A stretch of DNA of 64,000 bases from Bacteroidales bacterium (GTDB taxonomy: Bacteria; Bacteroidota; Bacteroidia; Bacteroidales; JAADJA01). Positions 1,963 to 64,000 of this stretch are shown in pieces. Position 1 is the first letter of the stretch; each line of letters starts with the position of its first letter. The notes beneath the pieces are model-generated. The model ran no database searches, was not told where the DNA came from, and was given only the letters and a program-made list of their open reading frames with translations. The position numbers were made by a program, and so were the translations under genes. Where the stretch lies: contig JAUVJI010000002.1 in NCBI GenBank assembly GCA_030596605.1, positions 2,904 through 66,903 on the forward strand. Direction: 5' to 3'.

Positions 1963-2016
1963 GCAAATAATAATTCATCCCCGGCGAATAATAATTTACC
2001 ACAAATAATCCAAACC
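1963..2016 (+). repeat. Degenerate GCAAATAATAAT / CGAATAATAAT / ACAAATAATCCAAA motif cluster upstream of the LytTR gene
   Basis: TTTGCAAATAATAATTCATCCCCGGCGAATAATAATTTACCACAAATAATCCAAACC aligns with 11609-11650. Confidence 0.45.
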
Positions 2017-2570: not shown

Positions 2571-5500
2571 ATGTTTATTAACCTTAAAATTTTTTATGTT
2601 ATGAAAGACAATTTACATTTTCGAGCAGTTACGAAAGGATTGCTTTTGGGATTAATCTCCCTAGTACTTTTGGGCTATAACAGCAACGCCCAGGTATCGT
2701 TTACACAAACCCTTAATGCCGATTTCTACAAAGGGGTCTATAATGACCTTCTCGTAGGATCGGATAACGTTTATCTGCCATACCAGGCAACCGATGTTAA
2801 CACCTGGCTAACAACTACTATTTTGCCACAAACTCTTGAAGGGCATAAAACAGCAACATGGAACAATCGTTATGTTTATGTTGTTGGAGGTTACAATGAT
2901 GTATCCTACTCAAGTTCTGTGTACCGGGCAACATTAACAACCGGAGGTATCAGCAGTTGGACAACAGAAAACTCCTTACCCGTTGGTTTAAGGGATCATG
3001 CAGTAGTTATAGGAACGAACACCATATATGTTATGGGGGGACGTGACGATACTAATATTTATGATGAGATCTATGCTGCGACAATTAACAGTGACGGTTC
3101 TCTTGGAACATGGGATTTATTATCAGTAACATTACCGGAAACATTATGGGGGCATACTGCAGCATATTGCGGTGGATATATTTATGTTGTAGGTGGATCG
3201 AATATAATGAGTAGTACATATGCAGTACCTGGCGTTTATTATTCAGAGGTTCAGGCTGATAATTCCTTAACATCATTTGCCACTAATGAAGCCATGTTCC
3301 AAGGTAGAAACGGGCACTCAATGGTTGTACACGGAACTACCTTTTATATTATAGGAGGATATGATGATTTTGGAAATAAAAAGAACACTGTCCTGTATAA
3401 TACTTCACAACTTAATGGCCAGCTTACTGCCTGGTCGTACGCGACAAGTTTGCCAATTGCAATAAGCAACCATTCTTCGGTTATTATGAATGGTTTAATT
3501 ACCGTTTTAGCTGGTGAAAGCGGAGGAACCTTAAGCAACAGTGTTTATTATGCTGATATTAATACTTCTCCATTGGTTTGGAACCTAGCTACTAATGTCA
3601 TATACGACAGGACAAAAGACGGAGCTGCTTTTGCAACAACTTTTGCAACAAATGGATGGATTGGATATTGCGGTGGTGAAAACCTTTCGGGTACCCCAAT
3701 CCATAATTCGCGTTATGCAAACCTCACGTTATCGGCTGATTATGAAAAAAACGGGTTCTTTGTTTCCAACCCGTTTTATGAATTAGGTGCCGAACGAGAG
3801 ATCACAGAATTAACCTTCTCGGCTTCAAATCCTGCCGGGTCAAACACAGAAATTGCATACCGTACTGCCGGTGAAGATCTTGATTGGGATAACTGGACTG
3901 CACTGACTTCTACCAGTCCGGTTGTAATTGGAATAACAGACCGTTATCTTCAATATAAGATAGTTTTTACAGGTGATGGCTCAGTAACCCCAACTTTCCA
4001 TGATATGAACCTTTGGACACCGGGAACAGAGCTTGCCGGCAATCTGAATGGCTGGACAACATTTGATTTTGCCAGCAGCCCCTATTGGGTTACTGCTGAT
4101 ATTTCATTTACCGGCGGTACACATACATTTGATGCGGGCGTTGAATTAAACTTCCTGCCTCAAACGGGAATGACTGTAAGCACAGCAAATATAATCTGTA
4201 ACGGAACTGTAACGGATTCGGTTAGGTTCAGAGGCTATACAAGTGAAATTGGTTTGTGGGATGGTATTTATTTTGATCCGAACAGTGACAATGGCGTTTC
4301 ATCCCAATTTTACTATACGGTTATTGAAGGCGCCGGCTATGGAAGCTGGAATGCTAATTTATATTGCAATAGTACCAATGAACCATTGTTGATGCATAGT
4401 AGTTTAAGAGGGGCGGATGGGCATGGTTTAAATTTAAACGCCTCTCATTTAACTATTGAAGAAACCTTTTTTGGAGGAAACACAGAAAGTGGTGTTTATC
4501 ATAACAATTCGAATCCATCATTCCTTAATTGTGAAATGTCGGATAACCAGTTTGCCGGTATTTACCTTTCTTCTGTTGCATCGGAACCCAATTTCTATAC
4601 AGTTCTGTCAGCAAATAATACCTATGCAATGTATTATCCATCACCTAACTTTACTATTCTTCCTCCCAACGGAAGTAACCTGACCTTTACAAACAACACT
4701 TACGATGGTATTTGTTTTGAAGCGGGAGTTGTTTCACAGAGTCAGGTTTGGAATTCTGTTGCTTATGATTATATATTATTAGGGGATGTTTTTGTCCGGG
4801 CTAATTCTTCAACACCACGCCTGACCATTGAACCGGGAAATACAATAAAAACAATACAGGGTTCCAAACTGCAAATCGGAGATTATACAGGTTATCCGGG
4901 TCAAGGCGGTGAATTGTATGCCATTGGAACAGTCGATAGTCTTATCACTTTTACATCATGGAACAGTACCGTTGGCGGATGGGAAGGTATTTATTTTCAT
5001 AATTACAATGATTCCTGGGGAGGGGTATCTGTAATGGATTACTGTGTAATCGAAAACGGGAATGATTACAATATGTTATGCGATCAATCAACCCAACCTG
5101 CAATCAGTAATTCTATAATAAGGGATGCGGTAACTGATGGAATACGGTTCAACGACTCTTATGGTTCTGTTGCCTCCTCTGTTTTTTCTAATTTTGGACG
5201 CTACCCGATATATTTTACAGATTGGAAAGCATCCCCAACTTTGAGTGGCAACACTTATTCAGCGAAAGGCATTAACCTGATCGCACTTGAAGCAGGTGAT
5301 TATTCATCTGACAGGACTTTATACAATGATGGTATTGATTATCTGGTGTTAAATACTATCCGTGTTATGGCTAATAGTAGTACCCCAATGTTAACAGTTG
5401 AAGCAGGACTAACCCTGAATTTTGCTTCGGGTACTATCCTCCAGCTTGCCGGCTATGATGGTTATCCTGGCCAGGGAGGCGAATTATATGCAGTTGGTAG

Positions 5501-7787
5501 TTTAGGGAATGAAATCACATTTAAACCTTATTCTGATATTGCAGGTGATTGGGAGGGTATTTATTTCCATGATTATAGCGATGTCTGGAGCGGAACTTCT
5601 ACTATGGAGTATTGTGTAGTGGATAAAGGGAATGAATATAATGTTTACACTTCATCTACCACTCAACCTTCTATTGACCATTGTACATTTAGCAATGCTG
5701 TTCAATATGGGATTAAAGAAAACAATTCATCACCCCAAATCCATAATTCCCAGTTTTTAAGTAATGGTAGCTATCCGATATATTATGCTAACTGGTCATG
5801 TAACTCCCATTTATTTGGCAATACTTATTCTGGCAACAATCCGGATTTAATTGCTTTGGAAGGTGGGGATTATAGCGCAGACCAAACATTTTATAATGAT
5901 GGTATAGAGTACCATGTCCTGAATACAATAAGAGTCGTTAAAACTTCTGATCCCCGTACCTTAACTTTAAAACCAGGGGTAACCTTAAATTTCGATCCGG
6001 GCACCAGGTTGCAGATTGCTGCATACGATGGATATCCTGGCCAGGGTGGTATGTTAATTGCAAATGGGAATATCGACAGTTTGATCACATTTAAGCCGTA
6101 CAACGATATTGCAGGTGGTTGGGAAGGGATCTACTTCCATGACCGTAGCGATAGTTGGAGCGCTGTGTCATCAATGAAATTCTGCCATGTTGAAAAAGCA
6201 AATAGTTATAATATTCATTTCGAATCGACTAACCAACCTGCAACTTTTGAAAATTGTGAAATAATTGATGCGGTTGGTAATGGATTATATTTTAATAGTG
6301 CAACACCGATTATTGTAAGTTCATCCATTACAAACAATGGAGGTCATGGTATATATCTTGATGGAACAAGTAATCCTGTTATTGGAAATAATACATCTTC
6401 AACTTGTAATATTTTTGGGAACGGGCCTTATGATGTTTACAACAATACGGCAAATGATATTGATGCCCGCAACAACTACTGGGGAACCGGCGACTCTGCC
6501 ATGATCGCTTCCCGGATTTATGATTATTATGATAATACTGCCAAAGGGATTGTCATCTTCGAGGACTTTGCACAGATTCCATCCATACCTACAGCAACTA
6601 CTTTATTAAGCGGTAACGTTTGGTACAATAATGCTTCTTCAACAGATATGGAGGATGCCCTGATGGAGATCTTTGATTTTGGAGGATCGCCTATATCCAG
6701 CACAAATACTAATACTTCCGGTTATTATTCATTCAGTTCCTTTGCTTCAGGAAACTACACATTGGACATTACACCTGATGATGTCTGGGGAGGTGCAAAC
6801 TCAACGGATGCCCTATTGATCCTGAGACATTTTGCTCATCTTGATACACTGGAGGGTATGGAATACGCTTCTGCTGATGTTAATTACAGTCAAACAATTA
6901 ATGGAACAGATGCATTGTTTGTATTGAAACGTTTTGCAGGCATGATCACATCCTTCCCGTCAGGTGACTGGCTTTATAATACCGAAAATCTTACCATTAA
7001 TGGCAACCAGGTTGTAAATGATTTTGCCATGTTGTGTTTTGGTGATGTAAATTCAAATTACATGGAGCCACCAAAGGATGATAATTCTGTTAATCTTGTT
7101 TATGAAGGAACCCAGATTATTCAGTCATTCACTGCTTTTGATTTGACGATTTCAATAAAGGATATGATTGAAGCAGGTGCTATTTCACTTGGTCTTATCT
7201 ATCCTGAAGAATATATAGAGATTACCGGAGCCGAATTAATAAATACAAATGGTAATGCAATTTACACAGTTGAAGACGGATTATTCCGAATTGCTTTTGC
7301 TGACCCTAATGGTGTGAATTATGCTGCCGGGGATGAAATGTTAGTTATAAATTGTGTGGCTAAAGATTTGTCATACATGCAGGAACCGATTCTTGTTGAG
7401 CTCTATGAAGATAGTGAATTCGCTGACCCAATGGCTCAGGTTATCAATGATGTTACTCTTTCAACACCTGAATTAACTACACTTGCCGTTGGAATTAACA
7501 ACCAAATTGCTGATGGATTATGGCTAAGTGATAACTATCCGAATCCATTCAATAAATCAACAACAATTCACTACCAGATTCCTGAATTCGGCTATGTGAA
7601 TATTAAAGTATTTGACATTACTGGTACAATTGTCACCGAGCTAGTGAATAGTAATCAAAAAGGAGGTGAATATACCGTCGAATTTAAATCAGATGATCTT
7701 GAGCCTGGAATCTATTTCTATAAACTTGAATTCAGAAATTCTGAAAATCATAATAGTTTGATAAATAAAATGAGTGTAACACGTTAA
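2571..7787 (+). CDS. Giant modular surface protein: Kelch-like repeats, three 190-aa parallel-beta-helix-type repeats, dockerin-like segment, cohesin-like module, T9SS CTD
   Basis: 1738-aa ORF. A signal-like segment follows the alternative ATG at 2601 (MKDNLHF...LLGYNSNAQ). Kelch-like VVGGY/VMGGR/VVGGS/IIGGY repeats cover ~2800-3750. An exact 570-nt periodicity spans 4677-6386. STDALLILRHFA...GTDALFVLKRFAG lies at ~6780-6945. A cohesin-like AISLGLIYPEEYIEITG block lies at ~7085-7480. The protein ends with YPNPFNKSTTIHY...GIYFYKL. Confidence 0.85.
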   Translation: MFINLKIFYVMKDNLHFRAVTKGLLLGLISLVLLGYNSNAQVSFTQTLNADFYKGVYNDLLVGSDNVYLPYQATDVNTWLTTTILPQTLEGHKTATWNNRYVYVVGGYNDVSYSSSVYRATLTTGGISSWTTENSLPVGLRDHAVVIGTNTIYVMGGRDDTNIYDEIYAATINSDGSLGTWDLLSVTLPETLWGHTAAYCGGYIYVVGGSNIMSSTYAVPGVYYSEVQADNSLTSFATNEAMFQGRNGHSMVVHGTTFYIIGGYDDFGNKKNTVLYNTSQLNGQLTAWSYATSLPIAISNHSSVIMNGLITVLAGESGGTLSNSVYYADINTSPLVWNLATNVIYDRTKDGAAFATTFATNGWIGYCGGENLSGTPIHNSRYANLTLSADYEKNGFFVSNPFYELGAEREITELTFSASNPAGSNTEIAYRTAGEDLDWDNWTALTSTSPVVIGITDRYLQYKIVFTGDGSVTPTFHDMNLWTPGTELAGNLNGWTTFDFASSPYWVTADISFTGGTHTFDAGVELNFLPQTGMTVSTANIICNGTVTDSVRFRGYTSEIGLWDGIYFDPNSDNGVSSQFYYTVIEGAGYGSWNANLYCNSTNEPLLMHSSLRGADGHGLNLNASHLTIEETFFGGNTESGVYHNNSNPSFLNCEMSDNQFAGIYLSSVASEPNFYTVLSANNTYAMYYPSPNFTILPPNGSNLTFTNNTYDGICFEAGVVSQSQVWNSVAYDYILLGDVFVRANSSTPRLTIEPGNTIKTIQGSKLQIGDYTGYPGQGGELYAIGTVDSLITFTSWNSTVGGWEGIYFHNYNDSWGGVSVMDYCVIENGNDYNMLCDQSTQPAISNSIIRDAVTDGIRFNDSYGSVASSVFSNFGRYPIYFTDWKASPTLSGNTYSAKGINLIALEAGDYSSDRTLYNDGIDYLVLNTIRVMANSSTPMLTVEAGLTLNFASGTILQLAGYDGYPGQGGELYAVGSLGNEITFKPYSDIAGDWEGIYFHDYSDVWSGTSTMEYCVVDKGNEYNVYTSSTTQPSIDHCTFSNAVQYGIKENNSSPQIHNSQFLSNGSYPIYYANWSCNSHLFGNTYSGNNPDLIALEGGDYSADQTFYNDGIEYHVLNTIRVVKTSDPRTLTLKPGVTLNFDPGTRLQIAAYDGYPGQGGMLIANGNIDSLITFKPYNDIAGGWEGIYFHDRSDSWSAVSSMKFCHVEKANSYNIHFESTNQPATFENCEIIDAVGNGLYFNSATPIIVSSSITNNGGHGIYLDGTSNPVIGNNTSSTCNIFGNGPYDVYNNTANDIDARNNYWGTGDSAMIASRIYDYYDNTAKGIVIFEDFAQIPSIPTATTLLSGNVWYNNASSTDMEDALMEIFDFGGSPISSTNTNTSGYYSFSSFASGNYTLDITPDDVWGGANSTDALLILRHFAHLDTLEGMEYASADVNYSQTINGTDALFVLKRFAGMITSFPSGDWLYNTENLTINGNQVVNDFAMLCFGDVNSNYMEPPKDDNSVNLVYEGTQIIQSFTAFDLTISIKDMIEAGAISLGLIYPEEYIEITGAELINTNGNAIYTVEDGLFRIAFADPNGVNYAAGDEMLVINCVAKDLSYMQEPILVELYEDSEFADPMAQVINDVTLSTPELTTLAVGINNQIADGLWLSDNYPNPFNKSTTIHYQIPEFGYVNIKVFDITGTIVTELVNSNQKGGEYTVEFKSDDLEPGIYFYKLEFRNSENHNSLINKMSVTR
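4677..6386 (+). repeat. Three in-frame tandem coding repeats of exactly 570 nt (190 aa)
   Basis: The landmark GG(T/A)TATCC(G/T)GG(T/C)CA(A/G)GG(C/A/T)GG recurs at 4890, 5460 and 6030. GGCAA(C/T)ACTTATTC recurs at 5247 and 5817. The protein repeat reads ...GYPGQGGELYA.G....ITF......GGWEGIYFH...D.W......YC...... Confidence 0.9.
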
Positions 7788-7798
7788 AATCTGTAATT

Positions 7799-10700
7799 AT
7801 GAAAACGAAATTTATAATAATCATTTCGGCGCTTTTCATAATTACCTGGCCGGTTTTGCTGCAAAGTCAAACGATAGTAACCACAGCCGGGTCACCATCA
7901 GAGTGTCCCGGGGAAATTGTGGTTCCTATTACAGTGACCAATTGCAACGGGGTCGGAGCCATTTCACTTGTCTTTCAACACGATACCGGGATCCTGACTT
8001 ATATGAACTATGAGAATGTTCATGCAGATTTATCCACAGGACTCCTTATCGTTAATCAGACCGGTGATAAAGTGATCATAAGCTGGGCTTCGACTACTGC
8101 TGCCAATATCGGAAGCGGAACCCTGATGGACATCCGTTTTTCAGGGGTTACCGGAAACAGCAGTTTAACGTGGGACACACAAACACCAGGTAATTGTGAA
8201 TATAGCGATTCAAACGGAAATATTCTTCCGTCTTCTTATACCAACGGCACGGCTACGATTTATCAAGTGCCGGAGGTACTTGATCATCCAGATGATGTTA
8301 CGGCCCTTGTGAACGATGATGTAAGCTTTAGCGTAAATGCCCTAAGCACAGGTATCAGCAGATTATGGTACAGGAGTACGGATGGAGGAACAAACTGGTT
8401 TTCAACCGGAGTAACCTCAGCAACATTGAATGTTTATGATGTAACATTGGACATGGATGGATATTTATACCGCTGCGAGATCAGTGGCACATGCAGTCCA
8501 ATAGCAATCTCTGATGAGGCAGAGTTAACGGTGATTCAACCGTTGATTACATCATTTGATGTGCAGGATGTTTGTCCGGGAAATATTACAATCCCAATCC
8601 TGACATCCAATTTTACGGATGTCGCTTCCCTGTCATTGGCATTTAGCTATAATACCTCAACTTTAACCTATTCGGGTTATCAGAATGTAAATTCCCTGTT
8701 GCCCGGAAACTTTGTATGTAATGAAGTGGGTGGAATGGTATATATGACATGGTCAACTACTTCACCTGTAACTTTTGGAACTGATACAACGCTAGTTGAA
8801 ATTCAATTTACAGGAGCAACCGGAAGCAGTAACCTGACATGGGACTTGACAACACCGGGAAATTGCGAATACACCTATTTGAATGCAGATCAAATTGTTT
8901 CTGTTTTCCAGGACAATTCGTTTACCATTTACCAGGTGCCGCAAATCAATGTTCAACCTGTTGATAAGCTGATCCCGGAAAATACCGGAACTAGCTTTAG
9001 TGTGTCAGCCGTAGCTTCAGGAATTAATTATCAATGGCAGATAAGTACTGATGATGGTGGAATTTGGACAGACATGATCAATGGTGGCCAATACAGTGGT
9101 GTGACATCAGCCACCCTTAACATTTCCAGTGCCTCGCTCTCAATGAGTGGTTATTGGTATCGTTGTATTGTAGGTGGGTATTGTTTACCTGATGCTATTT
9201 CTGATCCCGCCGAATTGATTGTCCTGCCAAGAATAACAGCAATTGCAGGAAATGTTTCTGATTGTCCGGGGACTATTACAGTACCTATTGATGTTACCCA
9301 TTTTATCAATGTTGCAGCCTTTTCCTTAACACTTAATTTTGATGAGGCCATATTAACCTTTGATAATTATCAATCGTTACATAGTAACCTATCAGGTGGA
9401 AGCTTTGCTTTAAATGCTGTTGATGGAAAAGTTTACATGACATGGACTTCAACCACGCCGGCTACCATCGGCGATGACCTTTTGATAGAATTGTTATTTA
9501 CCGGTATCACCGGAAGCAGTTCATTGAACTGGAATAATAGTGTTGAAGGAGCCTGTGAATTCAGCGACCTTGATGGAAATATCATTTTCGATAATTATAT
9601 AAATGGCAATGTCACTGTCTATCAACCTCCGATAATAACCGGTGATCCATCAAATCAAACGGCACCTGAAGGTACTGGAACAAGTTTTTCCGTTTCAGCA
9701 ACAGGAACGGGATTAAGTTACCAATGGCAGGAAAGTGACGATGATGGAAACAACTGGAATAATTTGTCGAACATCGCACCTTATTCAGGAGTAAATACTG
9801 CAACATTACAAATCAATCCAGTTGACCAAACAATGGATGCTTATCAATACAGGTGCAGGGTGTCAGGAACATGTCCGCCGCTGGTTTATTCAAGTTCTGC
9901 AATATTGAATGTGATACCTCCTGTTATTCATACTTCAGCTGGAGATATTTCAAATTCCTGTACAGGCAACATTACTGTACCTATAGGCGTGAGTAATTGT
10001 AATAATGTCGGGGCTATTTCTTTGGCTGTGAATTATGATAATACCAAACTGACTTATGAAGGTTATCAGTCACCAAACAGCGAATTAAGTGGAGGTATGT
10101 TAATTATAAATGCAACAGCAACACAGATTATACTCAGTTGGGCTTCGGTTAATCCGGCGGATATAGGTTTTGGAACTTTGATAGAATATAAATTTAAGGC
10201 CAATGCCGGAACTTCAACAACACTAATCTGGGATACACAGACACTTGGAAATTGCGAATACAGCGACCCTGACGGAAATATTTTTGCCATGGCATTTAAC
10301 ACCGGTGATATTTCTATCGCAGCCAATGCTTTGGTTGTAGATGCCGGAAGTGATGAAACAATAAGTCCGGGAGGGTCAGTCCAGTTAAATGGTTCGGCAA
10401 CAGGTGGTACTTTGCCTTATGGGATACAATGGACACCAACAAACTGGCTGACAGATCCAAATATTTTAGATCCTATAGCTGATCCACCAACTACAACCAC
10501 TTATACTTTAACAGTAATGGATAACCTGGGATGTTCAGGATCTGATGAAATGACGGTTAATGTGACTACAGCTGGAATTGACCTGGAATTGAAAGCTTTC
10601 CTGGAAGGTCCATTCAGCGGAACAACAATGGGAACAGAATTAAATAGCAATAATCTGATTCCACATAATCATCCTTACTCAGGGGCGCCATGGAATTATT

Positions 10701-11245
10701 CAGGATCGGAATATGTAACATGCATTCCAAATACTAATATTACTGACTGGGTAATGGTAGAATTAAGAGAGACAAGTGGCGGAGCTTCAACGGCAACCGG
10801 AGGAACAATGATCGTGCAGCAAGCAGGATTTATCCTGAATGATGGAAATATTGTGGATACAAATAGTACTAACATGATGCATTTTGATGTATTCATTACA
10901 CAAAATCTTTATGTTGTTATCTGGCATAGAAATCATCTGGCTATTATGTCATCCGGACCATTGACAAATGTGGGGGCAACATATTCCTGGGACTTTACAA
11001 CAGGTTCAGGACAGGCTCATGGAACAGATGCCCAGAAAATCCTTGGAGGAGTTTACGGCATGTATGCCGGAGATGGTGATGCCAATGGTACTGTTGAAAC
11101 AGCTGATAAAAGTGCAGTTTGGGGCTCACAGGTTGGAATGAAAGGTTATTACTCAGGTGATTTTGATATGAACGGCCAGGTGATGAACCAGGATAAAAAT
11201 GATGTTTGGTTAGGTAACTTTAATGAACAAACACAGATACCATAA
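7799..11245 (+). CDS. Scaffoldin-like secreted protein: 4 x (cohesin-like + Ig-like) modules, SprB/PKD-like segment, C-terminal LEGPF/HRNHL module with dockerin-like loops; no T9SS CTD
   Basis: Signal peptide MKTKFIIIISALFIITWPVLLQSQ. There are four ~230-aa repeats. Each has a CPG.I.VPI.V......AISL.F.YD...LTY...W.....G..TL block (cohesin-like). Each also has a YQWQ.S.DGG..W......YSGV.SATL.I......GY.YRC block (Ig-like). The C-terminus ends ...NEQTQIP. Confidence 0.85.
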   Translation: MKTKFIIIISALFIITWPVLLQSQTIVTTAGSPSECPGEIVVPITVTNCNGVGAISLVFQHDTGILTYMNYENVHADLSTGLLIVNQTGDKVIISWASTTAANIGSGTLMDIRFSGVTGNSSLTWDTQTPGNCEYSDSNGNILPSSYTNGTATIYQVPEVLDHPDDVTALVNDDVSFSVNALSTGISRLWYRSTDGGTNWFSTGVTSATLNVYDVTLDMDGYLYRCEISGTCSPIAISDEAELTVIQPLITSFDVQDVCPGNITIPILTSNFTDVASLSLAFSYNTSTLTYSGYQNVNSLLPGNFVCNEVGGMVYMTWSTTSPVTFGTDTTLVEIQFTGATGSSNLTWDLTTPGNCEYTYLNADQIVSVFQDNSFTIYQVPQINVQPVDKLIPENTGTSFSVSAVASGINYQWQISTDDGGIWTDMINGGQYSGVTSATLNISSASLSMSGYWYRCIVGGYCLPDAISDPAELIVLPRITAIAGNVSDCPGTITVPIDVTHFINVAAFSLTLNFDEAILTFDNYQSLHSNLSGGSFALNAVDGKVYMTWTSTTPATIGDDLLIELLFTGITGSSSLNWNNSVEGACEFSDLDGNIIFDNYINGNVTVYQPPIITGDPSNQTAPEGTGTSFSVSATGTGLSYQWQESDDDGNNWNNLSNIAPYSGVNTATLQINPVDQTMDAYQYRCRVSGTCPPLVYSSSAILNVIPPVIHTSAGDISNSCTGNITVPIGVSNCNNVGAISLAVNYDNTKLTYEGYQSPNSELSGGMLIINATATQIILSWASVNPADIGFGTLIEYKFKANAGTSTTLIWDTQTLGNCEYSDPDGNIFAMAFNTGDISIAANALVVDAGSDETISPGGSVQLNGSATGGTLPYGIQWTPTNWLTDPNILDPIADPPTTTTYTLTVMDNLGCSGSDEMTVNVTTAGIDLELKAFLEGPFSGTTMGTELNSNNLIPHNHPYSGAPWNYSGSEYVTCIPNTNITDWVMVELRETSGGASTATGGTMIVQQAGFILNDGNIVDTNSTNMMHFDVFITQNLYVVIWHRNHLAIMSSGPLTNVGATYSWDFTTGSGQAHGTDAQKILGGVYGMYAGDGDANGTVETADKSAVWGSQVGMKGYYSGDFDMNGQVMNQDKNDVWLGNFNEQTQIP
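7871..10325 (+). repeat. Four tandem ~690-nt coding repeats (cohesin-like + Ig-like module)
   Basis: Module boundaries are marked by ...IYQVPE (about 8263), ...IYQVPQ (about 8935), ...VYQPP (about 9625) and ...ISIAAN (about 10325). Confidence 0.8.
10577..11242 (+). other. LEGPF/HRNHL module copy A (domain I could not match to a named family, with two dockerin/EF-hand-like loops)
   Basis: IDLELKAFLEGPF...DWVMVELRETSGGAS...HRNHLAIMS...GDGDANGTVETAD...GDFDMNGQVMNQDKND...QIP. Confidence 0.8.
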
Positions 11246-11545
11246 AATCGGGATAATTCATCCGATGACTTCGAGTCATCGGATGAATCTCTACTTATTC
11301 GTCTGATCACTGTCCATGTGTATGCCTTGCACGCAGTGGTCTGACGAATAATAAAAGGAAAAAACACAGGTTATGAATTAATTGTAAGTTCATTGAAATT
11401 TAAAATATACATAAGAAAGGAGGCAATAAGTTTATTGATCTTTGTAAACCAAAATTTACGAACTTGCTATTTTAGAAAGGAACTTTAATCTTCGCAAATA
11501 TTATCCAAATGAGGGCCCCGTTTTAGCTTACGGGGTTCTTTTTTA
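11246..11545 (+). repeat. Conserved structured non-coding element, copy 1 (two long hairpins, conserved blocks, GCAAATA-TATCCAAA motif, intrinsic terminator); candidate ncRNA or structured 3-prime UTR
   Basis: Hairpin 1 at 11257-11287 is TTCATCCGATGACT-TCG-AGTCATCGGATGAA, a perfect 14-bp stem. Hairpin 2 at 11297-11349 is ATTCGTCTGATCACTG...CAGTGGTCTGACGAAT. It has a homolog at 17096-17391. Confidence 0.6.
11513..11545 (+). terminator. Intrinsic terminator-like hairpin plus T-run
   Basis: GGGCCCCGTTTTAGCTTACGGGGTTCTTTTTT. Confidence 0.6.
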
Positions 11546-11608
11546 TATAGTTAGTGATTCCGAAACATAGATTTATCTCAGAAACTTCTACTTTGTTATA
11601 GGTTATCT

Positions 11609-11650
11609 TCGCAAATAATAATCCAACCCCGGCAAATAATAATTCATGTC
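11609..11650 (+). repeat. GCAAATAATAATCCAA-CCCCGG-CAAATAATAATTC motif pair upstream of the 11749 gene
   Basis: CTTCGCAAATAATAATCCAACCCCGGCAAATAATAATTCATG belongs to the same family as 1963-2016, 11493-11510, 17341-17358 and 18551-18567. Confidence 0.45.
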
Positions 11651-11748
11651 ATATTTATCAGATTTGTATATTTAGTTTTACAATATTAAATCCGGTATGA
11701 ATTTAACTTCTGTTAATAACAATAAATATGTAACTAAAACTTATCACA

Positions 11749-14529
11749 ATGAAAACAAAATTATTCATCCCGAAAGCTTTCGGGATCAAATCAATCATCT
11801 TCGGTGTCCTGTTTTTTGGGTTATTATTAAGCCACAGTGCAAATGCCCAGCCCAACCTATGGGGAATGACTTCCTTTGATTATTCGGGTCATTATGGCGT
11901 AATATACTGCTATAACGCAAGTACGGACATTTATACCGTAAAACATTTTTTCGACGAAACAGACGGTGGTCAACCAAGCTATGGATTAATACAGGCTTCT
12001 GACGGGCTGTTATATGGAGTGACAGATTTAGGAGGTGATAATGATGCAGGTGTAATCTTTAAAATTGACCCGGCTAACGGTAATTTTACCAAAATTCACG
12101 ATTTTTATTGGTGGACTGGTACATGGCCTTCAGGTACCTTATTGCAGGCTTCTGACGGGCTGTTATATGGAATGACGAATGGAGGAGGGGACAATGGCTA
12201 TGGTGTTATCTATAAAATCGACCCAAATAATAATGATTTTACCAAAATACATGATTTTAATGGAATGGATGGGGGTTATACAATGGGAGGCTTAATGCAG
12301 GCTTCTAACGGGCTATTATATGGAATGACGTATGAAGGAGGGGACGATGACTGTGGTGTTATCTTTAAAATTGACCCAACTAATAATGATTTTACCAAAA
12401 TACACGATTTTGATTGGACAGACGGAATATGGCCAATAAACAATCTAATACAAGCTTCAAACGGGTTGCTATATGGAATGACATATGATGGTAATTATTA
12501 TGGAGTTATTTTTAAAATTGACCCGGCTGACGATACTTTCACAAAAACATACGATTTTAATTCGGAGGGCAGAAGTCCGTGTGGTGGTTTATTTGAGGCT
12601 TCTGACGGGCTGCTATATGGAATGACGTATGAAGGAGGAGACAATGACTGTGGTGTTCTCTTTAAATATGAACCGCTTAACGATACTTACACCAAAATTG
12701 CCGATTTTAACGGAACAAACGGGGCTAATCCATACAGCACTTTAATGCAGGCTTCCGATGGACTTTTATATGGCTACACAACTGATGGAGGCTCTACCAG
12801 TGATGGCAATATATTTAAATATGACATCACCACCGGGATTCTGACAGGTATTTATGATTTTGACGGAACAAACGGAAATGATCCTTTTTTTGGTAGTTTG
12901 GTAGAGGTAAGTACAAGTGTCACTGTAAGCTGCACTACTCCTGTAACTCCGTTAAATGCAACAACCGGTATAAGTGTTAACACCTCTCTGGAATGGAATA
13001 GCGTACCGGAGGCTGATGCATACCTGTTATACTTCGGAACTGATAATCCGCCAACAAACATTGAAGATGAATTGGATGTGGGAAATGTTACATCATACAC
13101 TCCATGTATAGCATTGGGTTATGACCAAACATATTATTGGCAGGTTATACCTTATAATTCAACCAACACGGCTTTAGGATGTGATATTTGGTCGTTTACA
13201 ACAGAAGACAACAGGATTGATCTTGACCTTACAGTTTATCTCGAAGGGCCATACGATGGCACCGATATGGATACGGATCTTAATCCCGAACTCATCCCTT
13301 TATCCCAACCTTATAACGATCCTTTGAAATGGGATTACCAGGGAATGGAAATTGTTGATAGTATTCCGAATGTGAATGTGGTTGACTGGGTGTTGATAGA
13401 ATTAAGGGAAACCACTGGGGATGCATCAACTGCCCGGCCCGGCACTATGATTGCAAGGCAAGCTGCTTTCCTGTTGAATGATGGGTCTGTTGTTGGTTTG
13501 GATGGTACAGACAACGCATGCGTTGTCTCGTCCCCCATTACCAACAATCTGTTCGTTGTAATCTATCACCGCAACCACCTCGAAATAATGTCAGCCAATC
13601 CATTATCCGAATCAGGAGGGGTTTATACTTACGATTTTACAACACCTGAAGGACAGGCTTATGGAACAGATGCACAGAAAAACCTCGGTGGAAATTACGG
13701 GATGTATGCCGGAGATGGTGATGCCAATGATACTGTTGAAATCGCAGATATAAACAACACCTGGAATTTGCAGGCTGGGAAGAATGGTTACTATTCCGGT
13801 GATTTTGATATGGACAGTGAGGTTAATAATATTGACAAAAATGATGTTTGGTTAAATAATATTGGTATGGCTTGCCAGATGCCGGTTGAAATCCCTGTTA
13901 TTTGTGGTGATCCGTTCACAGATTACCGAGACGGGCAAAGTTATAACACAGTACAAATAGGCACACAATGCTGGATGTCCGAATACCTGAACATTGGTAC
14001 TATGGTAAACGGCAACTGCAACCAAAGCAATAACAGCACTATTGAAAAATACTGTTATGGCAACAACACAAGCAATTGTGATACCTATGGCGGCCTGTAC
14101 CAATGGAATGAGATAATGCAATATGTCACAACACCAGCTGTACAAGGTATTTGCCCTGCCGGCTGGCATTTACCGACTGATGATGAATGGAAAACTATGG
14201 AAATGCATCTCGGTATGACACAAGCCCAGGCTGATGCGACAGGTTGGCGAGGTACTGATGAAGGGGGCAAGCTCAAAGAATTTGGTACAGATCATTGGAC
14301 TTCACCCAATACAGGGGCAACAAATTCGAGTGGTTTCACAGCCTTACCGACTGGTCACCGTAACATCAACGGAAATTTCTGGAATCTCACGAATAACGGC
14401 CAATGTTGGTCATCAAGCGAGAACGGTTATGCCGCATGGAACAGATACCTGGAACATGTTAGCGCACAGGTGTGGCGGAGCGCCAACAACAAGATGGACG
14501 CCTTCGGGGTACGTTGTGTGCTGGATTGA
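11749..14529 (+). CDS. Secreted protein: GloVer-type (Gloeo_Verruco-like) repeat propeller, FN3-like domain, LEGPY/HRNHL module, C-terminal FISUMP (Fibrobacter succinogenes major paralogous) domain
   Basis: Signal peptide ...LLLSHSANAQ. About six to seven ~51-aa repeats read QASDGLLYGMT..GG..G.GVIFKIDP....FTKIHDF. The LEGPY...HRNHLEIMS...GDGDANDTVEIAD...GDFDMDSEVNNID module spans 13216-13896. The C-terminal CGDPFTDYRDGQSYNTVQIGTQCWM...CPAGWHLPTDDEW...GVRCVLD matches the FISUMP signature. Confidence 0.85.
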   Translation: MKTKLFIPKAFGIKSIIFGVLFFGLLLSHSANAQPNLWGMTSFDYSGHYGVIYCYNASTDIYTVKHFFDETDGGQPSYGLIQASDGLLYGVTDLGGDNDAGVIFKIDPANGNFTKIHDFYWWTGTWPSGTLLQASDGLLYGMTNGGGDNGYGVIYKIDPNNNDFTKIHDFNGMDGGYTMGGLMQASNGLLYGMTYEGGDDDCGVIFKIDPTNNDFTKIHDFDWTDGIWPINNLIQASNGLLYGMTYDGNYYGVIFKIDPADDTFTKTYDFNSEGRSPCGGLFEASDGLLYGMTYEGGDNDCGVLFKYEPLNDTYTKIADFNGTNGANPYSTLMQASDGLLYGYTTDGGSTSDGNIFKYDITTGILTGIYDFDGTNGNDPFFGSLVEVSTSVTVSCTTPVTPLNATTGISVNTSLEWNSVPEADAYLLYFGTDNPPTNIEDELDVGNVTSYTPCIALGYDQTYYWQVIPYNSTNTALGCDIWSFTTEDNRIDLDLTVYLEGPYDGTDMDTDLNPELIPLSQPYNDPLKWDYQGMEIVDSIPNVNVVDWVLIELRETTGDASTARPGTMIARQAAFLLNDGSVVGLDGTDNACVVSSPITNNLFVVIYHRNHLEIMSANPLSESGGVYTYDFTTPEGQAYGTDAQKNLGGNYGMYAGDGDANDTVEIADINNTWNLQAGKNGYYSGDFDMDSEVNNIDKNDVWLNNIGMACQMPVEIPVICGDPFTDYRDGQSYNTVQIGTQCWMSEYLNIGTMVNGNCNQSNNSTIEKYCYGNNTSNCDTYGGLYQWNEIMQYVTTPAVQGICPAGWHLPTDDEWKTMEMHLGMTQAQADATGWRGTDEGGKLKEFGTDHWTSPNTGATNSSGFTALPTGHRNINGNFWNLTNNGQCWSSSENGYAAWNRYLEHVSAQVWRSANNKMDAFGVRCVLD
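11950..12900 (+). repeat. Tandem ~153-nt coding repeats (GloVer-type blades)
   Basis: CAGGCTTCTGACGGGCTGTTATATGG-like cores start at 11992, 12145, 12298, 12451, 12595 and 12748. Spacing is 153 nt, with one step of 144. Confidence 0.85.
13216..13896 (+). other. LEGPF/HRNHL module copy B (internal, followed by the FISUMP domain)
   Basis: IDLDLTVYLEGPY...DWVLIELRETTGDAS...HRNHLEIMS...GDGDANDTVEIAD...GDFDMDSEVNNIDKND...EIP. Confidence 0.8.
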
Positions 14530-14581
14530 TTTGAGTAAATTTGTAATAAAAATAATAAATATACCTTAAAAATAAATCATC

Positions 14582-17095
14582 ATGAAAAATCTCATTCTAA
14601 TTAACTTTTTAGTTTTGTTTCTAATTACTTTTTTAACAGGCCAGGTTATTTCTGATTTTGAAATTGAAGATGATACTGAAAATTGGCATTCCGAAGGTGA
14701 TGGCAATTATGGTTGGGAATCAGGCACAGGAAACCCTGGTGGATGTTTTCGTGTAAATGATTATGCCACAGGAGATATGAACCGTGCTTATGCGCCGGTG
14801 AAATTTCTTGGTGACTGGTCATCCGCCACAACAAGTGATTCTATTTCCGCTGACATTTTTCTACATGACATGGGCGGAGGGTATGTAAATCCTAATTTTG
14901 TATTCAGGATTGTTGGCCCGGGAGGTTCTGCTATTGCTATATATGATCCTATACCTACGCCACCACATGATACCTGGATCACCTATTCTGTAAACCTAAT
15001 TGAAAATGATTGGTTTGTTGAATACGGCACATGGGCTGATATTCTTCAACATGTTAGCACATTTATCGTTACAATGGAATATATCAGTGGTGATGAATAT
15101 AATTTGTTAGACAATGTAACTCTTTCTTTTACGCCCATTGCAGTTCCCATTACTCCTGTTCTGTGTTCAGATTTTGAAAGCGGCTTATTTGAAGGATGGT
15201 CGGTAAATGATGCCGGGAGTGCTTCAATAGCAAGCACCGGTGGTAACCCTGGGAAATATCTTAAAATTAATGATGGCACCGGGAATTCAATAGCTGTGCC
15301 TTCATCTATCTATCACGGTGACTGGTCATTACTTGACGGCCATAATGCAGAGATCCATATAGACTATCTGATTACAGATATTAACGGGCCAACCTATTTA
15401 CATGATTTTTTTGTGAAAATTGCAGGTCCGGGGGGCGAAGCAACATATCCCATTGATAACAATATTGAGTTGGCTTTTAACAAATGGCATTCATTTGGTA
15501 TTCCAATTGAGCAAGCAGGCTGGATAATTTTAAGTGGCGATTGGAATTCGTTGATGGATTTTGTGGACGACATCCAAATTGTTGCCGAATTTATCTCTGG
15601 GGATGAAACCGTCGGGATTGATAATTTTTGCATTTCCAATTTACCGCCTTCAACGGAATTTATGGCTGAAAAGATATTTGTCTATTTGGGTGAAACAGTG
15701 CAGTTTTTCGATCAAACAACATCAGCACCGCAAACCTGGAATTGGGATTTTGGCGATTCCGGATCGAGCACAGAAGTTAATCCTTCTCATCAGTACCTTG
15801 CCCCGGGATTATATACAGTATCTTTAACTACAACCAACTACTTCGGTAATAGCACTGAAACAAAAACAGGATACATTGAAGTATATCCGGTTGATCAGTG
15901 TTTAAAGTTTGAAGATGATTTTGACGATAATATTATTCATCAAGCCTGGTCTTTTAAAAATGGGACTTGGAACGAAACATCCGGATTGATGAGGCAATCT
16001 TCAAATCATTATGTATCTGGTAATTACTTGGAAGGCTGTTTTGCTATTACAGGCAGTTTATTGTGGAACGATTATATTGTTTCCTGTGATTTCCGGTCAA
16101 CTGACAATGATATAATTGGTTTTGTTTTTAACTACCAGGATGAACAAAACATGTATATGTTCAGATGGAGGTTGAATCCTTTATACAGATCACTGTTTAA
16201 ATATGAAAACGGAGTTGAAACAGAACTTGCAACTGATAATGTCGGATATATTGAAAACGACTGGTACCATGCTGACATATACTCTTTAGACGGTAATATC
16301 GTGCTTGCTATTAATGGGGTGGAAATTTTTAGTGTTTTTGATGATACATTTACAAATGGGAAAGTTGGGTTGTATTGCTTTGGTAACCAATCCAGTTATT
16401 ATGATAATTTCAAGGTGGAATGTCCGGGGACACCTGTTGAGCTTAAAGTATTTTTAGAAGGGCCTTTTACAGGGTCTGAAATGACCACCGGCTTAAATGA
16501 CCAGAATATTCTTGCATTAAACAATCCCTATCCTAACGCTCCCTGGAATCATACCGGAACAGAAGGAGTGCTTTCATTTTCCAATCCGGATGTAACTGAC
16601 TGGGTGCTGGTAGATTTCAGGGATACTACATCGGCAAGTGCGGCACTACCCGCCTCTTCTATTGGAACCAAAGCAGCGTTGTTATTAAAAAACGGTCAAG
16701 TTATTTCACCTTATGGAGGATTGCCATTGTATCTTAATGCCACCATTAATAATAATCTTTATATTGTTATTCAGCACAGGAACCATTTGGGAATCTTGTC
16801 AGCAAATCCGGTAACAGAAGCCGGCGGAATGTATTCGTATGACTTTACAAACGGATCAGGACAGGCTTATGGAACAAATGCACAGAAAAATCTCGGTGGA
16901 ATTTATGGAATGTATGCCGGAGATGGTGATGCCAATGGAACTATTGAAGTGTCCGATATAAACAACATCTGGGGTTCACAGGTTGGAAAGATAGGATACT
17001 GGTCTGGTGATTTTGATATGAACGGGCAAGTGATGAATCAGGATAAAAATGATGTGTGGTTTTTGAATATAAACGAACAAACACAGATACCATAA
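14582..17095 (+). CDS. Secreted protein: two ~170-aa N-terminal repeats, PKD domain, LamG/concanavalin-like (DUF1080-like) domain, C-terminal LEGPF/HRNHL module; no T9SS CTD
   Basis: Signal peptide MKNLILINFLVLFLITFLTGQ. PKD signature WNWDFGDSGSSTEVNPSHQYLAPGLYTVSLT. A LamG-like block reads FEDDFDD...GFVFNYQDEQNMYMFRW...GKVGLYCF. The C-terminal module spans 16436-17092 and ends ...NEQTQIP. Confidence 0.85.
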   Translation: MKNLILINFLVLFLITFLTGQVISDFEIEDDTENWHSEGDGNYGWESGTGNPGGCFRVNDYATGDMNRAYAPVKFLGDWSSATTSDSISADIFLHDMGGGYVNPNFVFRIVGPGGSAIAIYDPIPTPPHDTWITYSVNLIENDWFVEYGTWADILQHVSTFIVTMEYISGDEYNLLDNVTLSFTPIAVPITPVLCSDFESGLFEGWSVNDAGSASIASTGGNPGKYLKINDGTGNSIAVPSSIYHGDWSLLDGHNAEIHIDYLITDINGPTYLHDFFVKIAGPGGEATYPIDNNIELAFNKWHSFGIPIEQAGWIILSGDWNSLMDFVDDIQIVAEFISGDETVGIDNFCISNLPPSTEFMAEKIFVYLGETVQFFDQTTSAPQTWNWDFGDSGSSTEVNPSHQYLAPGLYTVSLTTTNYFGNSTETKTGYIEVYPVDQCLKFEDDFDDNIIHQAWSFKNGTWNETSGLMRQSSNHYVSGNYLEGCFAITGSLLWNDYIVSCDFRSTDNDIIGFVFNYQDEQNMYMFRWRLNPLYRSLFKYENGVETELATDNVGYIENDWYHADIYSLDGNIVLAINGVEIFSVFDDTFTNGKVGLYCFGNQSSYYDNFKVECPGTPVELKVFLEGPFTGSEMTTGLNDQNILALNNPYPNAPWNHTGTEGVLSFSNPDVTDWVLVDFRDTTSASAALPASSIGTKAALLLKNGQVISPYGGLPLYLNATINNNLYIVIQHRNHLGILSANPVTEAGGMYSYDFTNGSGQAYGTNAQKNLGGIYGMYAGDGDANGTIEVSDINNIWGSQVGKIGYWSGDFDMNGQVMNQDKNDVWFLNINEQTQIP
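16436..17092 (+). other. LEGPF/HRNHL module copy C
   Basis: VELKVFLEGPF...DWVLVDFRDTTSAS...HRNHLGILS...GDGDANGTIEVSD...GDFDMNGQVMNQDKND...QIP. Confidence 0.8.
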
Positions 17096-17391: not shown

Positions 17392-17575
17392 GTTGGGCTG
17401 TACAACTTTTGTGGAGTGGAATTTATTAACGACCAAAAAGTAAATTTCCGTTAATTTAGATAATTATATCCACTTGATTAACGTATTTTGTATTTCTATA
17501 GTTAATTTGTGTGTTATTATTTGTAGTTTTAACTTTTTGTTTGTAGTTTTGCGTTAATTTATTAATTTATATACC

Positions 17576-18448: not shown

Positions 18449-18468
18449 TTAAAAAGGTTACATAGTTT

Positions 18469-20509: not shown

Positions 20510-20610
20510 AGTACTGATTTTTAATTATTTAATTATTAATTTATAAATCATTAAATGTTTGTTGCAAGTTTAACGATAAAGATAGCCAAAATTATAAAAA
20601 ATCCTGAAAT

Positions 20611-62793: not shown

Positions 62794-64000
62794 TTAGTCT
62801 GGTACCTGGTATTCAAAATCCAGATTTTTTAACCAATTTTCGTTTTTATCGAAATTATCAACCTGGCCATTCAGATTAAAATCCCCAATTAGATATCCTT
62901 GCTTTCCGGATTGTGTGCCCCATATGCTTTTATCTTCAAAATTAACGATCCCATCTGTATTACCATCTGCTGATACCATTCCCCAGACATTGGTTATAAT
63001 TTCCTTGTATCCTGCTTCAAAACCATAAACCTGGTATTGATCCAAAGAAAAATCAAACGAATAATGACCATTATTAACGACAACCGGAACCGAAGTCATA
63101 ATATCAAGGTGATTCCTGTGACGTACGATTATGTATAAATCGTTGCTAACCGGCAAATCAAAAATTGGAATATTTATTTGATCCTGACTTACAATTATCC
63201 CATCCTTTAGCAGAAAACAAGCCTCCTTCAAAATTGTTGAATCAGGGATCGCACTTGAGGCATCGCCACTGGTCTCTCTTAATTCAACCAGCACCCAATC
63301 TACAATATCAGGGTTTTGAATAGATGTAACAGATTCATCGCCAAAATAATTCCATGGTGGTTGATTATAAGGTTGTACCAATGGGAAATTGGTTAAACCG
63401 GTTAAATCGGTGTTCATTTCGTTTCCATCAAATGGGCCTTCAAGAAAAACTTTCAGGTCGAGGAAATATTCTGAAGGTACAATTGAGGATTGAACCTCAA
63501 TATTACAAATAACCGGTAAATGATCGGACATGTAATAGAGAGCCTGCAAAACAGAATCGGGAACAGATGTATTCACAGGAGCATCAATCAATGACATGTT
63601 AAAATGATTCCCGTCATTTCCGAGAGCGTAACATGAATTATTGATATATTTTACACCATTGTTTCCATTTAATACATCATTGCTAAAAAGTATAAAATCG
63701 AACCTATCGTCCATTCCACCGGTCGCACCGCCACCGAATTGCGATGTACGTGTACTCTGTGAATGAATCATTGAATATAAATCATTATTATGCCAGTTAG
63801 CAGCCGGTAGCGGATCATTCAATGGGTATAGCCCATCATTGATCAATGATTGATATGCTGGTTCAGAACTTGTATAGACATTAAAATCCCCACCGAAGAA
63901 TATATTTTTCGCATTGGGTTTATTATCAATGTGATCTTTGTACTCCAATACTTCGGCGAGACGTTTTTGCGCATTTGTGGAACCCGAACTGGCTTTTAGG
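62794..64000 (-). CDS. Endonuclease/exonuclease/phosphatase (EEP) family domain fused to the LEGPF/HRNHL module; N-terminus beyond window edge
   Basis: The frame stays open upstream of the TTG at 63948 to base 64000. GGDFN and MSDHLPV are EEP motifs. A C-terminal LDLKVFLEGPFDG...DWVLVELRETSGDAS...HRNHLDIMT...GDFNLNGQVDNFDKN module ends ...EYQVPD. Confidence 0.8.
   Translation of the reverse strand, partial: LKASSGSTNAQKRLAEVLEYKDHIDNKPNAKNIFFGGDFNVYTSSEPAYQSLINDGLYPLNDPLPAANWHNNDLYSMIHSQSTRTSQFGGGATGGMDDRFDFILFSNDVLNGNNGVKYINNSCYALGNDGNHFNMSLIDAPVNTSVPDSVLQALYYMSDHLPVICNIEVQSSIVPSEYFLDLKVFLEGPFDGNEMNTDLTGLTNFPLVQPYNQPPWNYFGDESVTSIQNPDIVDWVLVELRETSGDASSAIPDSTILKEACFLLKDGIIVSQDQINIPIFDLPVSNDLYIIVRHRNHLDIMTSVPVVVNNGHYSFDFSLDQYQVYGFEAGYKEIITNVWGMVSADGNTDGIVNFEDKSIWGTQSGKQGYLIGDFNLNGQVDNFDKNENWLKNLDFEYQVPD
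62797..63462 (-). other. LEGPF/HRNHL module copy D (on the EEP enzyme)
   Basis: LDLKVFLEGPF...DWVLVELRETSGDAS...HRNHLDIMT...ADGNTDGIVNFED...GDFNLNGQVDNFDKN...QVPD. Confidence 0.8.

Follow-up and report, generated by a model that had tools for sequence, protein, structure and literature searches.

In a 64,000-nucleotide stretch of DNA from a Bacteroidales bacterium (GenBank contig JAUVJI010000002.1; this whole stretch is called the window below), we analyzed four consecutive genes, A to D, all on one strand. On balance, their predicted products argue for a non-cellulosomal system of cohesin-dockerin display that uses a type IX secretion system (T9SS) as its base and in which the cohesin-dockerin contacts are deduced from sequences and structural models. 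Protein A ends in what we read as a four-part cassette (Doc-Coh-CTD): first a beta-sandwich, next a type-I-like dockerin whose first Ca loop is degenerate, then a cohesin, and last a T9SS type-A C-terminal domain (CTD). Protein B carries four cohesins, and proteins B, C and D have in common a module of 222 amino acids (aa), which we named XDoc-like, for X-module-dockerin-like. A gene for a LytTR-domain protein precedes A.

A sequence-only reading of the same DNA had proposed that four giant genes share the roles of a surface assembly. The four open reading frames (ORFs) were confirmed with their boundaries and common strand (Table 1). Overall, the observation held in part, with corrections, and its interpretation is partly supported. 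At the level of domains the roles are indeed divided, with CTD, dockerin and cohesin in A, multiple cohesins in B, and CTD-less, cargo-like proteins in C and D; the products, of 837-1738 aa, are large, not giant. By direct reading, all four proteins have Sec-type N-termini, and none of the four (0/4) has a lipobox cysteine. Type-A CTDs were present on at least nine proteins of the window, A included, and the window carries a SusC/SusD pair; these mark its source as a Bacteroidota genome using T9SS. The nearest public relatives of the window are metagenome-assembled genomes (MAGs) of uncultured Bacteroidales. Modules were checked with Pfam release 2025 and NCBIfam 2026. Related loci are labelled L001-L004, L024, L029, L068 and L078-L084, and family representatives P0233 and so on.

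The C-terminal cassette of protein A and the cohesins of protein B

The claim that A is the only CTD-bearing protein of the four was borne out. The CTD of A matched PF18962 (E 7e-12) and TIGR04183 (36.3 bits against a cutoff of 23), and PF18962, PF13585, TIGR04183 and a local CTD profile had no match in B, C or D. The dockerin-like segment and the cohesin-like module that had been proposed for A were likewise recovered, each at the family level. The dockerin (aa 1403-1460) scored 20.7-22.6 bits against PF00404 with its own sequence, just under the gathering threshold (GA) of 22.9, which is marginal. At the family level the assignment was solid: 38 of 60 cassette homologues matched PF00404 at E<=0.01, and the family profile matched dockerins of the PDB (4dh2_B, E 8e-8; CelS, E 1.3e-6). 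The first Ca loop, WGGANSTD, is degenerate, without D/N ligands at positions 1, 3 and 5, and the second, DVNYSQTINGTD, is close to canonical on direct reading. Two complete Ca-binding loops, as in type I dockerins, were not found in A. The AlphaFold2 (AF2) model of the dockerin has three helices.

The module before the CTD of A had no Pfam match with its own sequence, and hhalign of this single sequence against the four-sequence profile of the B cohesins was not significant (Prob 2.4). The family profile, in turn, matched the Archaeoglobus fulgidus cohesin 2xdh (E 1.6e-7) and all four B cohesins (E 4e-9 to 6e-7), and hhalign with the family alignment related A-type to B-type cohesins with Prob 98.5 and E 3e-15. 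PF00963 was matched by 11 of the 60 cassette homologues and the CTD by 59. The AF2 model of the cassette had a predicted local distance difference test score (pLDDT) of 92.9 and a predicted TM-score (pTM) of 0.76. When it was searched with Foldseek, the top match was 2w1n, a cohesin-FN3 construct of C. perfringens GH84C, and the best single-domain matches were cohesins, with TM-scores by target (TMt) of 0.66-0.74 (5nrm_A 0.74; 1g1k, 2vn5, 6kgf and 2xdh about 0.68). Along its length, the family profile matched dockerins, the cohesin 2xdh, SdrD-B-type beta-sandwiches and the T9SS CTD 8glj_D, in this sequence. We read the cassette in this way because every element was identified at the family level. 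The cassette (398 aa) matched 814 database proteins at E<=0.001, many of the weaker ones aligning to the CTD alone.

The annotated ATG at nt 2571 gives A an odd N-terminus, and alignments with its orthologues begin only at aa 7-40. Translation from M11 (nt 2601, MKDNLHF...) gives a typical signal peptide, and nt 2601 is probably the true start. Pfam had no family for aa ~380-590 of A and, within this region, no match to aa ~380-500 (nt 3700-4070) even at E<=1.

The four cohesin-like modules predicted for B were found as four stretches matching PF00963 (E 7e-20, 72.1 bits against a GA of 24.1), and a local hmmsearch also returned four domains. Compared with the first one, the cohesins have 41-47% identity. 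An exact-sequence look-up of B in one sequence collection had no match, so the source genome is absent from that collection. A homologue search with the B cohesin profile returned 20 short fragments only, and is thus mute on how often B-type cohesins are accompanied by a CTD. Two cysteines, at alignment positions 13 and 110, are invariant in all four cohesins, which is compatible with a disulfide bond and an oxidising, extracytoplasmic location.

The XDoc-like module

The region common to B, C and D spans about 230 aa, of which the module takes 222, with 50-56% identity. The sequence-only reading had seen a dockerin-like tail in each of the three proteins. A shared module is indeed present, but it is not a bare dockerin, and in C it is internal. 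It has two parts, a beta-sandwich of ~165 aa and a double Ca-loop/helix segment of ~60 aa. AF2 predicted the module of B, from a 57-sequence alignment, as a single compact model (pLDDT 97.9, pTM 0.93), with the beta-sandwich packed rigidly on the dockerin part.

When this model was compared with the PDB by Foldseek, ranks 1-7, 9 and 10 were type II X-module-dockerin chains, aligned over the full length with prob 0.97-1.0. The best match was ScaA of A. cellulolyticus (4u3s_B, E 5e-4, prob 1.0, TMt 0.60), and further ones were the C. thermocellum CipA/CipB chains 2b59_B, 3kcp, 4fl4, 5g5d_B and 5m0y_B. Other matches, to carbohydrate-binding modules (CBMs) and Calx-beta, had prob <=0.4.

Each Ca loop has 12 residues of the form D-x-[DN]-x-[DN]-G-x-[IV]-x-x-x-D and is followed by a helix (loop D166-D177 with helix 175-185; loop D195-D206 with helix 204-214), the two segments forming a 29-residue duplication. 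In both loops, D1, D/N3, D/N5, G6, I/V8 and D12 are kept in 54-57 of the 57 sequences. The module was recognized neither by Pfam (E<=10) nor by NCBIfam. When the XDoc profile was run against PDB sequences, the four best matches were dockerins, all weak (E 0.12-0.24), which does not amount to detectable sequence homology to dockerins. We call the module XDoc-like because its predicted fold and its motif support the name; by sequence alone it cannot be counted as an established dockerin.

Distribution of the XDoc family

The XDoc profile, run by HMMER over 1.84 billion cluster representatives (50% identity clusters), matched 15,911 of them at E<=1e-3; 13,447 remained with a cutoff of 1e-10 and 6,605 with one of 1e-30. 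Among GTDB species representatives, at least 586 stretches matched, with many copies per genome. All hosts recovered belong to the Fibrobacterota-Chlorobiota-Bacteroidota (FCB) group: Bacteroidales, Chlorobiota/Ignavibacteria-like and Calditrichaceae MAGs. Members of the family are presumably annotated as hypothetical or partly annotated proteins.

We examined the 112 XDoc ORFs in the related loci and the 142 top-ranked family representatives matching a local XDoc profile. The module stood at the C-terminus in 95 of the 112 and 116 of the 142. A type-A CTD was found on none of the 112 and on one of the 142, P0237, in which XDoc is N-terminal and the type-A CTD ordinary. Unusual architectures were seen in P0235, P0233, P0314, P0326, P0352 and P0237; they include N-terminal copies, one of them with three FISUMP domains after it, and P0235, a single protein with five XDoc modules in tandem. 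In seven of eight internal or N-terminal cases checked, FISUMP follows XDoc, as it does in C. An obligate C-terminal signal is ruled out as the nature of XDoc by these internal, N-terminal and tandem copies together with P0237.

The fusion partners of XDoc include C10, C1 and M28 peptidases, endonuclease/exonuclease/phosphatase-like (EEP) domains, glycoside hydrolase (GH) family 18, FN3/Ig, LamG, GEVED, FISUMP and one to four B-type cohesins. Proteins combining one to four B-type cohesins with XDoc are common, and cohesins were present on ~6-8% of the sampled family members.

Conservation of the gene neighbourhood

The order and strand of LytTR-A-B are the same in the Bacteroidales MAGs L002-L004, with identities of 62-70% for A, 68-80% for B and 30-49% for the LytTR protein. 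In L001, the closest relative (86-88% nucleotide identity), A is 89% identical; across L001-L004, B is 68-88% identical. L001 keeps A and B, and C, D and the Fic gene that follows them are absent. After B, L001 continues straight into the BNR/CTD gene that is found at 18632 in the window. The C-D-Fic segment of ~7 kb (window ~11420-18550 against L001 4705-4719) is therefore an indel. It is flanked by short GCAAATAaTATCCAAA repeats, and the direct repeats at its junctions, GCAAATA(A/T)TATCCAAA, resemble a half-site of the 34-bp box described below. This suggests insertion or deletion of C-D-Fic by recombination at the junction motifs. In view of the indel, we rejected a fixed four-gene operon.

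The sequence-only reading had taken the four genes as a block whose synteny could be looked for in related genomes. This expectation failed: only LytTR-A-B is kept, and other XDoc genes occur where C and D would stand. Downstream of B in L002-L004 we found genes for a Peptidase_C10+CUB+XDoc protein, a 1109-aa and a 297-aa XDoc protein and an EEP+XDoc protein, and TPR or transposase genes. The conserved core at this locus is LytTR-A-B, and C-D is an accessory unit in this genome.

A wider comparison covered all loci whose upstream DNA could be read, 12 in number (the window, L001-L004, L024, L029, L068, L078, L080, L081 and L084). In all 12, the gene for one or more cohesins with XDoc has upstream of it, on its own strand, a gene that ends in the Doc-Coh-CTD cassette. 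The N-terminal parts of the upstream cassette proteins can be unrelated to A, as seen by tblastn in L024, L029 and L068. In several loci, a gene for a protein with two cohesins, PKD and CTD stands between the two; its product would be an anchoring scaffoldin. Because of the 12/12 pairing, we conclude that the conserved unit is a cassette protein with a cohesin-XDoc scaffoldin, and that the XDoc cargo is variable and mostly dispersed.

Bigger clusters were present on unrelated metagenome contigs (L078 3241-13260; L081 1232-9516; L083; L084). Their layout is a cassette protein, a 2x cohesin-PKD_6-CTD protein, adaptors that join one to four cohesins to XDoc, and Peptidase_C1+lectin or Peptidase_M28 proteins bearing XDoc.

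The LytTR gene and the 34-bp box

LytTR was the sole domain match in the 165-aa protein, in which no receiver domain was found, and no kinase gene is adjacent. The box upstream of this gene has the consensus GCrAATAATAATyCAwyCCCGGCrAATAATAATT, in which two direct repeats of 12 bp recur with a period of 21 bp. Its position upstream of LytTR is equivalent in L002 (1418-1450), L003 (1423-1455) and L004 (1420-1452), and it is invariant across the four genomes amid otherwise unalignable intergenic DNA. A search of 1.26 Mb on both strands, allowing each half-site two mismatches at most, gave a single match beyond the second copy at 11611, a degenerate and unrelated one on the minus strand of L029.

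LytTR operators are typically direct repeats at about 21-bp spacing, as for AgrA. Because the spacing of the repeats fits this layout, we infer that the LytTR protein probably controls both transcription units via the shared box, with autoregulation of LytTR-A-B and co-regulation of C-D. This shared control would be the sole functional tie of C-D to A-B. The suggestion that LytTR is the dedicated regulator gains support from the synteny in L002-L004 and from the box upstream of both LytTR and C; its limits are given in the Discussion.

A Bacteroidetes -7-like TAnTTTTA motif was seen ~29 bp downstream of the box. A scan for sigma-70 promoters was at chance level, with 58 found against 62 expected. 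The intergenic DNA also holds three copies of a palindromic element with the arms ATTCGTCrGAyCACTG and CAGTGGTCTGACGAAT (six arm matches against 0.03 expected), which could be a REP-like (repetitive extragenic palindromic) element or a terminator. Each copy sits just past a stop codon.

Other features of the window

The domains that had been read in C and D were largely recovered: GloVer, FISUMP, PKD and ConA/LamG-like regions were found, and the FN3 domain of C was not confirmed by Pfam. No Pfam match was found for aa 22-360 of D (14645-15660), even at E<=1; this region resembles two internal repeats of ~165 aa. Neither Pfam nor NCBIfam found a GH or CBM domain in A-D. The window contains a fifth XDoc protein, an EEP fusion, and L004 has a similar gene downstream of its B orthologue.

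Five tandem paralogues of ~620-665 aa occupy 18632-28875 on the minus strand, and a sixth copy lies at 45140-46993 on the plus strand, all with a T9SS type-A CTD. The paralogue at 18632-20509 has a sub-threshold BNR/Asp-box match. A Ca-loop-like motif, DINxNGxLDxLDDWG, is present in four of the five tandem paralogues and in the sixth copy.

Table 1. Positions of the features in the window (nt), with residue ranges (aa) where these apply
Feature	Position	Strand	Remarks
34-bp box GCAAATAATAATTCATCCCCGGCGAATAATAATT, candidate operator	1963..1996	+	68 bp upstream of LytTR start
LytTR-domain protein, 165 aa	2064..2561	+	PF04397 E 1.8e-13; no receiver domain; ends 9 bp before A
Protein A, 1738 aa	2571..7787	+	signal peptide, Kelch propeller, beta-helix region, C-terminal cassette
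A, Kelch propeller	2820-3698	+	aa 84-376
A, repeated right-handed beta-helix region	4068-6560	+	aa ~500-1330
A, cassette, first half	6591..6950	+	SdrD_B/CarboxypepD_reg-like beta-sandwich aa 1341-1402; dockerin aa 1403-1460
A, cassette cohesin (CohA type)	7071..7490	+	aa 1501-1640
A, cassette T9SS type-A CTD	7536..7784	+	aa 1656-1738
Protein B, 1148 aa	7799..11245	+	signal peptide, four cohesins alternating with Ig-like domains, PKD-like, XDoc-like; no CTD
B, B-type cohesins	7868-8272, 8540-8941, 9227-9631, 9920-10327	+	
B, PKD-like domain	10343-10564	+	
B, XDoc-like module, 222 aa	10577..11242	+	
Palindromic element, ~53 bp	11297..11349, 17147-17199, 18469-18521		after B, after D, after Fic
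Terminator-like hairpin between B and C	11511-11540/11550	+	strong; 11-bp stem, 6 GC pairs, T-run
34-bp box, second copy	11611..11644	+	105 bp upstream of C
Protein C, 926 aa	11749..14529	+	signal peptide, GloVer repeats, internal XDoc-like, FISUMP; no CTD
C, seven GloVer repeats	~11851-12903	+	E 2e-98
C, internal XDoc-like module	13216-13884	+	aa 490-712
C, FISUMP domain	13951-14526	+	E 2e-38; after XDoc
Protein D, 837 aa	14582..17095	+	signal peptide, ~340 aa unmatched, PKD, ConA/LamG-like, C-terminal XDoc-like; no CTD
D, PKD	15665-15883	+	E 2e-14
D, ConA/LamG-like region	15911-16417	+	TSP_C 31.4 bits, above GA; 3keto-disac_hyd below GA
D, C-terminal XDoc-like module	16436-17092	+	
Fic/DOC gene	17576-18448		
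Fifth XDoc protein, EEP fusion	62794..63999	-	XDoc ~62800-63462; gene leaves the window end

Discussion

In the display system that we propose, A would be exported by T9SS and attached to the surface via its CTD. B would be a CTD-less scaffoldin with four cohesins and one XDoc module, and Ca2+-dependent cohesin-dockerin contacts would tie B and the XDoc cargo to the anchored layer. Two pairings may be considered. In cross-pairing, the dockerin of A would bind a B-type cohesin and XDoc would bind the CTD-proximal cohesin. In self-type pairing, XDoc would bind a B-type cohesin and the dockerin of A the cohesin of A, and cohesin-XDoc proteins would polymerise. The two have nearly even chances, with cross-pairing slightly favoured because the cassette gene always adjoins a cohesin-XDoc gene. 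With cross-pairing, moreover, a polypeptide would not bind to itself; CipA is like this, since its cohesins are not bound by its own XDoc.

The cargo of XDoc proteins looks extracellular (Peptidase_C10+CUB, EEP, Peptidase_C1+lectin, M28, GH18). Options for the passage of B, C and D across the outer membrane are a piggy-back ride on the cassette protein, an unrecognised signal in XDoc, or some other route, vesicles for instance. In the piggy-back route, XDoc proteins would fold in the periplasm, dock in a Ca2+-dependent manner on the cohesin next to the CTD and cross the SprA translocon as a complex. We think this quite unlikely, and a literature search returned nothing relevant on T9SS hitch-hiking. 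If true, the Doc-Coh-CTD cassette would serve export in general as an adaptor, and T9SS would have a second, indirect class of cargo in the XDoc family.

Several observations weigh against the proposed system. No signal known to take a protein across the outer membrane is present in B, C and D, and export by T9SS is held to need a CTD (PMC9251779). PF00404 had no match to the XDoc-like module even at E<=10, and hhalign of the XDoc profile with the A-type dockerins aligned one Ca loop only (Prob 29). The Foldseek TM-scores of the XDoc-like model were moderate (0.45 by query, 0.60 by target), with a root-mean-square deviation of ~6 A. XDoc domains seem far more numerous than cohesins, and for this reason many of them may have another partner. 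Self-type pairing, or a dockerin of A bound in cis to its own cohesin, would also fit the pTM of 0.76 predicted for the cassette. As for regulation, the LytTR gene was not found in L024, L029 and L068 (L078-L084 lay outside that check), and the link to LytTR is limited to the close clade of the window and L002-L004.

The numerical excess of XDoc could also mean that the module binds something other than cohesin in a Ca2+-dependent manner, such as a surface glycan, lipopolysaccharide (LPS) or a substrate polymer. B, C and D would then each act on their own, as adhesins or lectins, and the fusion of XDoc to cohesins and its vicinity to them would concern a minority of the family. The small share of cohesin-bearing members among the sampled XDoc proteins, set against the 15,911 clusters, speaks for this, as do the missing Pfam dockerin signal, the N-terminal copies and the tandem arrays of up to five modules. 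The helix residues DKxxxW and DKNDxW are, moreover, conserved across phyla; cellulosomal dockerin recognition residues tend to differ between species. We nevertheless regard this explanation as unlikely. The only confident structural relatives of the module are cohesin-binding XDoc dyads, with CBM and Calx-beta folds far behind; fusion of XDoc with B-type cohesins recurs; and genes for XDoc enzymes lie within cohesin clusters. Excess in number is also not peculiar to this family, since in cellulosomes, too, dockerins far exceed cohesins.

The usual place of XDoc at the extreme C-terminus, its near-exclusive relation to type-A CTDs and the restriction of all recovered hosts to the FCB group would be expected if the module were, or contained, a new signal for export across the outer membrane or for sorting, used in place of type-A and type-B CTDs, with cohesins not its main partner. 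T9SS substrates with atypical CTDs exist, ChiA of F. johnsoniae being one. We consider such a signal very unlikely, because C has the module at an internal position and other proteins have it at the N-terminus or in tandem, often with FISUMP after it, because P0237 combines it with an ordinary type-A CTD, and because ~222 aa with two terminal helices are unlike the ~80-aa beta-sandwich CTDs. We hold it extremely improbable that A to D make up one dedicated assembly operon and are inherited together. Their adjacency on one strand, their complementary architectures and the box upstream of both LytTR-A-B and C would fit an operon; the loss or gain of C-D-Fic between half-box repeats in L001, the different XDoc proteins, or transposase and TPR genes, after B in L002-L004, and the terminator-like hairpin after B argue against it. 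The reading that we prefer remains the T9SS-based cohesin-dockerin display system.

Cohesin-dockerin assembly is the organising principle of Gram-positive cellulosomes. If the proposed system is true, Bacteroidales of anoxic sediments and digesters, and other FCB bacteria, would own a modular display system anchored by T9SS, which would recruit proteases, nucleases, chitinases and lectins via a plug module that is missed by domain databases. It would raise, for T9SS biology, the question of the route by which CTD-less proteins reach the surface. Binding assays, and the engineering of surface display in Bacteroidota, could draw on the XDoc module, both cohesin types and the LytTR box as defined reagents.

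Bacteroidota are in general described as devoid of such assembly, and one paper states that Bacteroidetes genomes have neither cohesins nor dockerins (PMC5831590); our literature search found no description of XDoc modules in Bacteroidota. New here are the unannotated XDoc-like family and its scale, the recurrent cassette/cohesin-XDoc cluster, and the LytTR gene with its conserved box. A cellulosome proper is ruled out by the absence of plant-cell-wall carbohydrate-active enzymes and CBMs from A-D; one GH18 occurs in related cargo.

A parallel in organisation is the anchoring of clostridial type II XDoc by cohesins (the XDoc of CipA with SdbA/OlpB/ScaC and of ScaA with ScaB; PDB 2b59, 3kcp, 4fl4, 4u3s, 5g5d and 5m0y). 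There, too, an X beta-sandwich is fused to a dockerin with a double Ca-loop/helix, the module stands at the C-terminus of a multi-cohesin scaffoldin, as in B, and a cohesin lies beside the cell-attachment domain of the anchoring protein. The X part is larger here, ~165 aa compared with ~95-100 aa in CipA. Here, moreover, the dockerin is invisible to Pfam, the host is diderm, and a T9SS CTD takes the place of SLH (surface-layer homology) repeats or sortase. The cargo, and not the scaffoldin alone, carries the XDoc module; it consists of lectins, proteases and a nuclease-like protein instead of cellulases, and no CBM was found on the scaffoldin.

Non-cellulosomal pairs, of which Peer et al. reportedly gave a survey in 2009 (cited in PMC8542988), are known from C. 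perfringens GH84C/NagJ (2w1n, 2ozn) and A. fulgidus (2xdh, the best sequence match of the cohesin of A). They likewise place a cohesin outside cellulose degradation and a cohesin with a dockerin in one polypeptide. The system proposed here differs from them by its fixed cassette with a T9SS CTD, its second XDoc family and its multi-cohesin scaffoldin.

In standard T9SS anchoring, as given for P. gingivalis in reviews cited in PMC9251779, the CTD is recognised and cleaved and the protein is attached to anionic LPS. A resembles such cargo, with a bona fide type-A CTD, whereas B, C and D have no CTD and, if they reach the surface, would be held there non-covalently, by docking of protein on protein.

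Among published concepts, the closest one has been put forward for 'Ca. Stygibacter' (Cloacimonadota), for which a cellulosome-like complex was proposed with a 3755-aa cohesin/CBM scaffoldin bearing a T9SS-type CTD and with enzymes carrying C-terminal dockerins (PMC8542988). In both cases, proposed from MAGs of FCB diderms alone, a CTD-anchored cohesin carrier would be joined by CTD-less dockerin proteins with signal peptides, and the same question of outer-membrane crossing arises. 'Ca. Stygibacter' has dockerins of the canonical InterPro/Pfam type and a single giant scaffoldin that carries CBM2/CBM3, whereas the system described here would rely on an unannotated XDoc-like module, on separate cassette and scaffoldin proteins, and on a LytTR gene with its box.

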